15,313 nucleotides of DNA, taken from Escherichia coli. Lineage in GTDB: Bacteria; Pseudomonadota; Gammaproteobacteria; Enterobacterales; Enterobacteriaceae. Numbering within the stretch: position 1 is the first letter of the stretch; each line of letters starts with the position of its first letter. The position numbers were made by a program, and so were the translations under genes. The notes under the pieces are model-generated. The model made no database searches. It worked only from the letters and a program-made list of their open reading frames with translations, and was not told where the DNA came from. Shown here in pieces: positions 12,389-15,313 of the stretch. The DNA lies in the NCBI RefSeq assembly GCF_003334315.1, contig NZ_QOWR01000076.1; one strand, 5' to 3'.

Positions 12389-13072
12389 ATGAAACTGTTG
12401 ATTGTCGAAGATGAAAAGAAAACCGGAGAATACTTGACCAAAGGGTTAACCGAAGCCGGTTTTGTGGTCGATTTGGCCGACAACGGGCTGAATGGCTACC
12501 ATCTGGCGATGACCGGTGATTATGATCTGATAATCCTCGATATTATGCTGCCGGACGTGAACGGCTGGGATATCGTGCGCATGTTACGCTCCGCCAATAA
12601 AGGGATGCCGATTCTGTTGCTTACCGCGCTTGGCACCATTGAACATCGCGTCAAGGGGCTGGAGTTGGGGGCAGATGACTACCTGGTGAAGCCATTCGCT
12701 TTTGCTGAACTGCTGGCGCGGGTGCGCACATTACTGCGGCGCGGGGCGGCGGTGATTATCGAAAGTCAGTTTCAGGTTGCCGATTTGATGGTCGATCTCG
12801 TCAGCCGCAAAGTCACCCGCAGCGGCACGCGCATCACTTTGACCAGTAAAGAGTTTACTCTGCTGGAGTTCTTCCTTCGCCATCAGGGCGAAGTGCTGCC
12901 CCGCTCGCTTATCGCCTCGCAGGTATGGGACATGAATTTTGACAGCGATACCAATGCTATTGATGTGGCGGTGAAGCGGCTGCGCGGCAAAATCGACAAC
13001 GACTTTGAGCCGAAGCTAATTCAGACCGTGCGCGGCGTGGGTTACATGCTTGAGGTGCCGGATGGTCAGTAA
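12389..13072 (+). CDS. cusR: CusR, OmpR-family response regulator of the CusS/CusR two-component system
   Basis: 227-aa ORF, GGAGG at 12380-12384. Receiver domain with the conserved phospho-acceptor context ([17 protein letters not shown]) and a C-terminal winged-helix domain ([21 protein letters not shown]...). Matches my recollection of E. coli CusR. Confidence 0.95.
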
Positions 13073-14510
13073 GCCATTTCAGCGCCCGTTTTCGCTGGCA
13101 ACCCGCCTGACCTTTTTTATCAGCCTGGCCACCATCGCGGCGTTTTTCGCCTTTGCATGGATCATGATCCACTCAGTAAAAGTTCATTTTGCCGAGCAGG
13201 ATATTAATGATTTAAAAGAGATTAGCGCCACCCTTGAACGGGTACTAAATCACCCTGACGAAACGCAAGCCCGACGCTTAATGACGCTGGAAGATATCGT
13301 CAGTGGTTATTCCAATGTGTTGATTTCCCTGGCAGATAGTCAGGGTAAAACGGTGTATCACTCCCCCGGTGCGCCGGATATCCGCGAGTTTACGCGTGAC
13401 GCCATACCCGATAAAGACGCTCAGGGTGGCGAGGTGTATCTCCTTTCCGGCCCGACGATGATGATGCCAGGCCACGGTCACGGGCATATGGAACACAGCA
13501 ACTGGCGGATGATTAACTTGCCGGTTGGCCCGTTGGTGGACGGCAAACCGATTTATACGCTCTACATCGCGCTTTCGATCGATTTTCATCTTCATTACAT
13601 AAATGATTTGATGAATAAACTTATTATGACCGCATCGGTAATCAGCATCCTGATCGTCTTTATCGTACTGTTGGCGGTACATAAAGGTCACGCGCCGATC
13701 CGCAGCGTCAGCCGTCAAATCCAGAATATTACCTCGAAAGATCTCGACGTTCGCCTCGACCCGCAGACCGTGCCGATTGAGCTGGAACAGCTGGTACTGT
13801 CGTTCAACCATATGATCGAGCGTATTGAGGATGTCTTTACCCGCCAGTCCAATTTCTCAGCGGATATCGCTCACGAAATTCGCACGCCGATTACCAATCT
13901 CATCACGCAAACGGAAATCGCCCTCAGCCAGTCTCGCAGCCAGAAGGAGCTGGAAGATGTGCTCTACTCTAATCTCGAAGAGCTGACGCGAATGGCGAAA
14001 ATGGTCAGCGATATGCTGTTTCTCGCTCAGGCCGATAACAACCAGCTAATCCCCGAAAAGAAAATGCTCAACCTGGCGGATGAAGTCGGCAAAGTGTTCG
14101 ATTTTTTCGAGGCGTTAGCGGAAGATCGCGGCGTGGAGTTGCGATTTGTTGGCGACAAATGTCAGGTTGCGGGCGATCCGCTGATGCTGCGTCGGGCGTT
14201 AAGCAACCTGCTTTCTAATGCCCTGCGTTATACGCCACCCAGTGAGGCTATTGTAGTGCGCTGCCAGACGGTCAATCATCAGGTGCAAGTTTCCGTCGAA
14301 AACCCCGGTACGCCCATTGCGCCCGAGCACTTACCGCGATTGTTTGACCGTTTCTATCGCGTTGACCCTTCCCGCCAGCGAAAAGGCGAAGGTAGCGGCA
14401 TTGGGCTGGCGATAGTGAAATCGATTGTTGTCGCGCATAAAGGCACGGTTGCAGTAACGTCAGATGCGCGGGGGACAAGGTTTGTGATTATGCTGCCAGA
14501 GAGAGAGTGA
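13062..14510 (+). CDS. cusS: CusS, copper/silver-sensing histidine kinase
   Basis: ATG at 13062 preceded by GAGG at 13052-13055, giving a 480-aa product ([41 protein letters not shown]...). Two transmembrane helices flank a periplasmic sensor domain, followed by HAMP, an H-box ([15 protein letters not shown]) and an ATPase domain ([13 protein letters not shown]). The start overlaps the cusR stop by 11 nt. The track's TTG at 13050 was rejected. Confidence 0.95.
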
Positions 14511-15246
14511 TTATTAAGTTCAAATTCAGGGCGTGGTGCATCACCTCCTGGTATTGTTGATCAACAAATTAGAGAAAAACTTATTAAACATATGAAATAT
14601 CGAAGGCTTTTATTTTTCAAAGTTTCACGAGATGTTTGTATATGAAACTTAGTTAAATCTGTGTTTCTTCCAATTGTAGATCACAATGCCCTTTCTAAAT
14701 TTTCATCGTTATAAACAAGCCATCTATCATATAAAGCAATGAATAATTTAATCGCGATTAATCATCATTAATTGTTATATTATTCACTCAATCTATTTAT
14801 CAAGTGAATTTGATAAATTCCTAATTTAAAATATCCACTATTGAGCCAGTATTTAACAACGTTAAGATGTGCAATGTGCAGATCATGTTATCAGGGTGGA
14901 GCGGTAGCATATATTTCTTATGCAATCATTCATTTTAATAATGTTAATTGGATTATTTATTGCTGTGAATAAAAATATATTATGAATATTGGTTTAACTT
15001 TACGTTTTTGTTACTCGTTGTGATATGCGTACCTGTCCTGAATAACGCCAAGAAACAAGAGGTTGAGCTTGTGATTATTTTTTTGACTGAACAGACACCC
15101 GTTTCTGTAAAGTAATATTTAAACAAAATTCTCACATAACCATAGCATTTTCTGTTCCTTCCCTAATAACGTCTGAAGTCGTCCCGCTTATCACATTATC
15201 CGCAGTTGTACGGTACGGATCATTATTCATTTTACTGGAGGTTGCT
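14511..15246. other. AT-rich non-coding spacer between cusS and the VgrG-like gene; likely promoter / xenogeneic-silencing region
   Basis: No ORF of 60 aa or more on either strand in the track. Two 60-nt lines I counted by hand (14761-14820 and 14941-15000) are each about 20% G+C, against roughly 50% in the flanking genes. Contains interleaved short palindromes at 14782-14820. Confidence 0.6.
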
Positions 15247-15313
15247 ATGTCAACCGGATTACGTTTCACACTGGAAGTGGACGGCCTGCCGCCGGATGCT
15301 TTTGCGGTGGTTT
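15247..15313 (+). CDS. vgrG: 5' end (22 codons) of a VgrG-like type VI secretion spike protein gene, truncated by the window edge
   Basis: ATG at 15247 preceded by GGAGG at 15237-15241 with a 5-nt spacer. The translation MSTGLRFTLEVDGLPPDAFAVV fits the N-terminal pattern of VgrG/gp27-like proteins as I recall it (compare V. cholerae VgrG1, which I recall as MATLAYSIEVEGLEDETLVV...). Only 22 residues are visible, so the family call is provisional. Confidence 0.5.
   Translation, partial: MSTGLRFTLEVDGLPPDAFAVV

Follow-up and report, generated by a model that had tools for sequence, protein, structure and literature searches.

The pairs tnaC-tnaA and toiL-topAI are examples of Rho-dependent control by a leader peptide. 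A 14-codon open reading frame (mini-ORF) in the leader of a vgrG gene of Escherichia coli resembles them: it is a short upstream ORF (uORF), the leader that holds it is long, and a stretch rich in C and poor in G begins at the uORF stop codon or just after it. It differs in having neither a conserved arrest motif nor a conserved Shine-Dalgarno (SD) sequence, and its stop codon is not adjacent to the RBS structure of the downstream gene. No nascent-peptide arrest or sensor motif conserved across the four peptide variants of the mini-ORF was found. A rut-like region of the tnaC/toiL type is present by composition (15096–15201). The leader peptides trpL, pheL, hisL, thrL, ilvL, and pyrL offer a second comparison. 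Here too an ORF of 14 codons with an SD precedes a structural gene, and trpL itself has 14 codons. Unlike the classical attenuators, the mini-ORF is accompanied by no regulatory codon run, intrinsic terminator, alternative hairpins, or Rfam leader match, and the gene downstream of it (vgrG) is not biosynthetic. The window peptide, MIIFLTEQTPVSVK, contains no run of codons for a sensed amino acid, its only repeat being Ile-Ile at codons 2–3. An attenuator of this kind needs a translated short ORF with an RBS; the window type of the leader has the ORF and the SD, and the other haplotypes have no SD.

Stringer, Smith, Mangano & Wade (10.1101/2021.07.02.450978) describe translation of a non-selected ('pervasive') kind, in intergenic regions and leaders of E. 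coli, for most of the short ORFs newly found there. The mini-ORF resembles these: it is a very short leader ORF with a non-ATG start and without purifying selection on its peptide, and one lineage has an SD where the others have none. The ORFs described there were defined by ribosome occupancy at start and stop codons, whereas the mini-ORF is a candidate read from the sequence.

Orphan islands of EHEC carry vgrG1-eagR-rhsF beside cusS and vgrG-rhsE beside yncH (PMC7216683). The locus analyzed here is the cusS-adjacent vgrG/eagR/rhs island of that study, with the same gene order after cusS, and the cusS-side and yncH-side islands have their leader in common. The studies of these islands consulted here, PMC7216683 among them, cover the proteins, and no regulatory element of the vgrG leader was found in them. 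The window, by which we mean the whole stretch of 15,313 nucleotides that was analyzed, is E. coli chromosome; megablast of 14400–15313 matched 5417 of 5426 complete E. coli genomes, with more than 80% of the query present in 2697. RefSeq annotation of an identical record places cusA-cusB-cusF-cusC, cusR, and cusS on the left flank. On the right it gives VgrG, a tip protein of type VI secretion systems (T6SS), as the preliminary description had anticipated in calling the gene VgrG-like, then a DcrB-related/EagR-like gene and a PAAR/Rhs gene. For cusS, the mechanical ORF begins at TTG 13050; RefSeq sets the start 12 nt downstream, and the gene overlaps the end of cusR (12389–13072). Between cusS and vgrG lies a spacer of 737 nt that is AT-rich (29–37% G+C). 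The features discussed below are as follows.

13062–14510, + strand: cusS, the chromosomal gene flanking the island on the left (megablast, RefSeq)
14794–15247, + strand: island-borne upstream region (promoter and leader) of vgrG, about 80% identical to the yncH-vgrG/rhsE locus, GC 0.33
14876–14912, + strand: nearly invariant 37-nt block, GTGCAGATCATGTTATCAGGGTGGAGCGGTAGCATAT, which holds GATC and overlaps the promoter-like site
14888–14915, + strand: promoter-like TTATCA-16-TATATT, with the same site in K-12; the only such site conserved at both loci
15008–15115, + strand: full stop-to-stop open frame in the ORF listing, 35 codons from TTG 15008, with an in-frame GTG at 15020
15057–15062, + strand: SD-like AAGAGG, 8 nt before the GTG, confined to the window-type haplotype
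15071–15115, + strand: mini-ORF, 14 codons, GTG to TAA, read and translated as (M)IIFLTEQTPVSVK
15096–15201, + strand: rut-like stretch, rich in C and poor in G, from within the 3' part of the mini-ORF on into the leader
15143–15149, + strand: CATAGCA, the exact complement of TGCTATG (15244–15250), which covers the vgrG start
15238–15313, + strand: RBS (GGAGG, 15238–42), ATG (15248), and first 22 codons of vgrG, which exits the window

The basic reading given in the preliminary description is exact to the base: AAGAGG (15057–15062), an 8-nt gap, GTG (15071–15073), 14 codons, and TAA (15113–15115). The codons are GTG ATT ATT TTT TTG ACT GAA CAG ACA CCC GTT TCT GTA AAG TAA. The distance to the vgrG ATG, put there at about 130 nt, measured 132 nt, and vgrG has its own GGAGG at 15238–42. 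The SD had been called strong. An SD-like site is indeed present, but the predicted duplex with the 16S 3' end (−6.5 kcal/mol) grades it as moderately strong. The mini-ORF is the 3' part of the 15008–15115 open frame; since that frame is open further upstream, GTG 15071 is an internal start, picked because of the SD. The + strand of the spacer has 37 start codons; apart from GTG 15071, none has both an SD of this quality and at least 10 codons. The frequency of this pattern was assessed with 500 dinucleotide-preserving shuffles of the 737-nt spacer, each scored for at least one equally good site (SD, start, and at least 10 codons). On the + strand, 16% of the shuffles held such a site; with either strand allowed, the figure was 33%, so the pattern of the mini-ORF alone is not beyond chance. 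Chance in AT-rich DNA, offered originally as the fallback reading, fits better than a leader peptide. A general caution follows for AT-rich acquired spacers of this sort, in a sixth to a third of which an SD-like hexamer with a short frame is expected by chance.

Relatives elsewhere exist only for the last 454 nt of the spacer (14794–15247). The related copy lies between yncH and a second vgrG-Rhs island or, in K-12, where vgrG is deleted, between yncH and the rhsE pseudogene. Because the 454-nt stretch recurs at the yncH locus, it is part of the island and not of the cus locus. The scan of metagenome contigs used a 21-mer that does not touch the mini-ORF, so as not to pick sequences by the ORF itself, and yielded at least 120 stretches. 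With the RefSeq loci added, five main haplotypes can be distinguished.

A: window type, at the cusS locus
A2: O157 type, at the cusS locus
B: K-12 type, at the yncH locus
C: L020/L026, beside a cusS of only 95% identity
D: L055, at the yncH locus

The 95% identity of the cusS beside haplotype C places it in a more distant Escherichia lineage. A contig scan with an 18-mer from the conserved block returned one relevant match, on a 'Citrobacter' MAG contig that ends 144 nt past the block, and the vgrG leader seems to be confined to Escherichia-like genomes. An 81-nt query around the mini-ORF was 100% identical in 2162 of the 5426 complete genomes (about 40%), while about 450 genomes differ from it at 1–4 positions and mostly carry the O157 allele. 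Carriers of the window-type allele include B strains such as BL21; in NEBExpress (NZ_CP053599.1) the allele occupies 3853851–3853931, with the GTG 26 nt into that interval. In B-type strains (L138, NEBExpress) and in L006, vgrG is truncated after ~270 nt or otherwise decayed; in L138 and L006 the leader and mini-ORF are still 100% identical despite the decayed gene. At a further locus (L013), an IS1 insertion in the cusS-vgrG spacer lies upstream of the conserved leader, from which it removes the first 63 nt.

The GTG, phase, and TAA of the mini-ORF are intact in 9/9 other distinct sequences. Some 25 nested ORFs of at least 10 codons occur on the two strands of the leader, and the mini-ORF is the sole frame among them that is conserved (kept in 9/9), whether it is counted from GTG 15071 or from the nested in-frame TTG 15083. 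Three longer ORFs were rejected as conserved, each being disrupted in other haplotypes: one of 43 aa on the + strand (14841–14972) and two on the − strand, of 51 aa (14980–15135) and 45 aa (15132–15269). Comparison with related islands, proposed in the preliminary description as a check, gave a divided answer. The ORF and its start are kept, but the SD is not, and the substitutions show no synonymous bias. The hexamer at the SD position is AAGAGG in haplotype A, AATAAG in A2, CATCCG in B, and CGTCAG in C and D, with duplex energies of −6.5 (A), −2.0 (A2), +1.2 (B), −1.5 (C), and −1.5 (D) kcal/mol, so that four of the five haplotypes have no SD. The bin that holds the SD (15049–15063) is variable at 9 of 15 positions, which ranks it second among the 15-nt bins of the leader and first among those upstream of the ORF. 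T occupies position three of the hexamer in A2 as well as in B, which makes the window type's GAGG a derived change, at least in part. Among these haplotypes, AAGAGG arose in the window lineage only, and at least one of its Gs is derived.

As nucleotides, the 45 nt of the mini-ORF are fairly well conserved because they lie in an indel-free block of the leader. Seven of the 45 positions are variable, compared with 27% leader-wide (Fisher p = 0.08), which places the mini-ORF within the best 15% of 45-nt windows. The upstream block 14854–14912 is much better conserved. An intact frame in paralogues can merely reflect a conserved non-coding block, and we put at roughly 65% the probability that the mini-ORF is an incidental open frame in the conserved AT-rich non-coding promoter/leader of RhsG/RhsE-type vgrG islands. 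The suggestion of a regulatory uORF or leader peptide, made in the preliminary description, found no support as a conserved feature, given the unconserved SD, a pN/pS of 0.65–1.0, the missing terminator, and the 132-nt gap to vgrG.

The encoded peptides vary. Across the haplotypes there are four, MIIFLTEQTPVSVK (the window), MIILLTKQTPVSLK (with a T9A variant), MIILLTQQPPVSLK, and MIILLSQQTPVSLK, with changes at positions 4, 6, 7, 9, and 13. No synonymous bias was found among the substitutions in the mini-ORF, with pN/pS between haplotypes of 0.65–1.0. These values bear on the idea of a free-standing gene for a small protein, either the 14-aa peptide or an extended form of 31–35 aa, to which we give hardly any credence. 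The frame is open, and gene finders call a yncH-type form of 30 aa; this ATG-started frame has been deposited only as an automatic 'hypothetical protein' (EcHS_A1543). Against such a gene stand the pN/pS values and an extension that is interrupted or startless in most haplotypes. The upstream extension of the frame is kept in only 3/9 and 0/9 haplotypes; the O157 type has an in-frame TAA where the SD would be, which cuts it. The 14 residues have no hydrophobic or signal features, and there is no family match, no NCBIfam model having matched the extended frames. The MG1655 RefSeq annotation, which includes experimentally supported small proteins, holds no feature between yncH (ends 1527152) and rhsE (starts 1527890), where the paralogous site is NC_000913.3 1527784–1527828. 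Since the K-12 allele has no SD and the locus is bound by H-NS, the missing MG1655 annotation is weak evidence. Hücker 2017, which considered ORFs of at least 30 aa in O157 Sakai, has no entry at the locus and is uninformative for 14 codons; the PIRT-Seq supplements likewise have no entry at the locus and are uninformative.

Rare natural variants affect the mini-ORF in several ways. One carries a synonymous GTA>GTT change (L015) and another a change within the spacer between the SD and the start (L014). The others are disruptive. Loss of 1 nt from the T7 run shortens the frame to VIIF* and leaves vgrG intact (L016), an IS1 has inserted inside the mini-ORF at about 15105 (L017), and the start is lost by GTG>GTA (L081). 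On metagenome contig QZLS01002240.1 (L018), a 164-nt deletion corresponding to window positions 15055–15218 takes out most of the leader, including the SD and mini-ORF, and keeps the vgrG RBS and gene; at the junction, ...CCAAGAA is joined directly to CATTATTCATTTTACTGGAGGTTGCTATG. Disruption of the frame in close homologues, which had been named as evidence against the ORF, presents a mixed picture: the main haplotypes are intact, but frameshift, lost start, IS1, and deletion occur among singletons. These disrupting variants are all singletons, some of them from low-coverage metagenome assemblies or in a homopolymer run and possibly sequencing or assembly errors. Taken at face value, they would show that loss of the mini-ORF is tolerated at least transiently; singleton variants do not prove neutrality.

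The RNA features of the leader are relevant to whether the window lineage might have acquired a regulatory uORF of its own. According to this alternative, which we regard as unlikely, the new SD would cause the mini-ORF to be translated and so tune vgrG in the manner of tnaC or toiL. Ribosomes translating the frame, or terminating at 15113–15115, would either modulate Rho loading on the C-rich leader beyond it or remodel the hairpin at 15070–15137 and, with it, access to the vgrG RBS. An SD of −6.5 kcal/mol placed 8 nt from the GTG, a frame open in all haplotypes, and the fixation of the SD-bearing allele in about 40% of complete E. coli genomes are all consistent with it. So is the C-over-G bias of 15096–15201, which starts at the 3' end of the ORF. 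C/G reaches 3.3–3.4 in 78-nt windows there, above the 99th percentile of 2.30 over the 15-kb window, and is a measure of composition only. The rut-like stretch suggests that premature termination by Rho may occur in this AT-rich leader of the H-NS type. H-NS-bound regions are frequent Rho targets. The paralogous region of K-12 is bound by H-NS (PMC3946193). Prediction has the SD and AUG of vgrG almost wholly paired, and the RBS thereby occluded, in the window type and less so in the other haplotypes, which also fits this alternative. CATAGCA (15143–15149) is a possible RBS-occluding partner for vgrG in this model; its pairing with TGCTATG has two compensatory pairs among only three sequences (alifold).

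The geometry and history of the mini-ORF argue against such a uORF. From its stop codon it is 28 nt to the CATAGCA partner and 132 nt to the ATG, and the SD is not kept in sister haplotypes that share both the ORF and vgrG. Base-pairing is predicted for the GTG (P unpaired 0.00–0.04), with the SD about one-third to two-thirds unpaired, and the leader is not significantly structured, folding as a whole no better than shuffles (z = +1.36). The hairpin in question, in which UGUGA (15070–74) pairs with UCACA (15133–37), is a predicted weak AU-rich one. Variants without the ORF retain vgrG. The peptide varies and carries no conserved motif of the arrest type; a uORF acting through the act of translation, though, can dispense with constraint on the peptide. 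No terminator-like sites were found in 14400–15313, and thus no intrinsic terminator follows the mini-ORF. An Rfam scan of the same interval (E ≤ 10) returned only chance matches and no leader or riboswitch family, the best at 24 bits against a gathering score of 170. The 132 nt between the stop codon and the vgrG start make translational coupling impossible. With no terminator, no Rfam family, a leader that folds no better than shuffles, and a distant stop codon, classical attenuation and coupling are both excluded on sequence grounds. In its most specific form, in which two point changes made an SD before a pre-existing conserved frame and the translated uORF controls access of Rho to the C-rich leader, the idea is a long shot. 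Were the mini-ORF a working uORF, it would be a rare instance of a T6SS vgrG/Rhs effector island controlled at the level of translation or through Rho. It would also show a uORF in the course of its birth by gain of an SD, as a recently born translational/Rho switch.

Conservation of the mini-ORF could also be secondary to that of a cis-acting element. On this account, a conserved 50-nt block (15063–15118) is a core promoter, an operator, or an RNA motif, and the ORF is conserved only through it; one example would be T[G/A/C]AACA-17-TAA[T/A]AT with a TSS near 15125, the mini-ORF then being promoter DNA. Nucleotide conservation without a codon-position pattern is what such an element would give, and the block contains the hexamers TTGACT and TAATAT/TAAAAT. 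TTGACT (15085) and TAATAT (15113) are separated by a 22-nt spacer and were rejected as a canonical sigma-70 promoter, and conservation is no higher in the hexamers than in the putative spacer between them. A consensus promoter scan reports none here in either the window or K-12. As an RNA motif the block fares no better, having no Rfam match and a weak local hairpin whose inner stem is broken in the other haplotypes. Genomic SELEX showed that RpoD holoenzyme and H-NS bind the K-12 spacer from yncH to rhsE (Shimada et al. 2014, PMC3946193), and binding of RNAP holoenzyme to this paralogous spacer is in keeping with a promoter. The promoter proposed in that study for K-12 (TTGACT-17-TATTAC; PMC3946193) lies upstream, and in the window it is destroyed by an 8-nt deletion. 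We judge an element of this kind to be distinctly unlikely. A search of the spacer for a Fur box gave a best match of 12/19, no better than shuffles.

The reading of the mini-ORF as an incidental frame in a non-coding leader accounts for the locus without assigning the peptide a role. The leader would be transcribed from the conserved promoter-like site at 14888–14915, and this predicted promoter would give a leader of ~325 nt containing the mini-ORF. Low-level initiation might occur at GTG 15071 in the window lineage, as translation of the non-selected kind, and neither the peptide nor the act of translating it would regulate vgrG in a conserved way. Control of vgrG would more probably be exerted through the promoter block and H-NS, possibly with Rho or RBS occlusion in the C-rich leader. 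The analysis has, as a by-product, mapped the common 454-nt vgrG leader, with its 37-nt promoter-like block, its rut-like stretch, and a possible RBS-occluding partner, and these elements are better candidates for vgrG regulation than the mini-ORF.

The 37-nt block is a landmark of the left part of the vgrG island leader, at cusS and at yncH alike. Copies also lie downstream of yncG, flanked on both sides by unrelated sequence (L008, L057, L110, L130, L131), and are followed by the N-terminus of an ISAs1-type transposase or by another vgrG. The appearance of the block is that of a common promoter module or of a recombination joint. Its identity as an IS terminal repeat was rejected, there being no inverted copy in any locus. 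About 335 nt past the block, three loci (L110, L108, and L090) have an SD-led mini-ORF before a vgrG, consisting of AAGGAGAACAAAATG and 13 codons (MKLNTRQQFVLLK*). Judged against L131, this second mini-ORF is evidently what decay has left of the start of an ISAs1-family transposase, an apparent case of mini-ORFs arising as debris.
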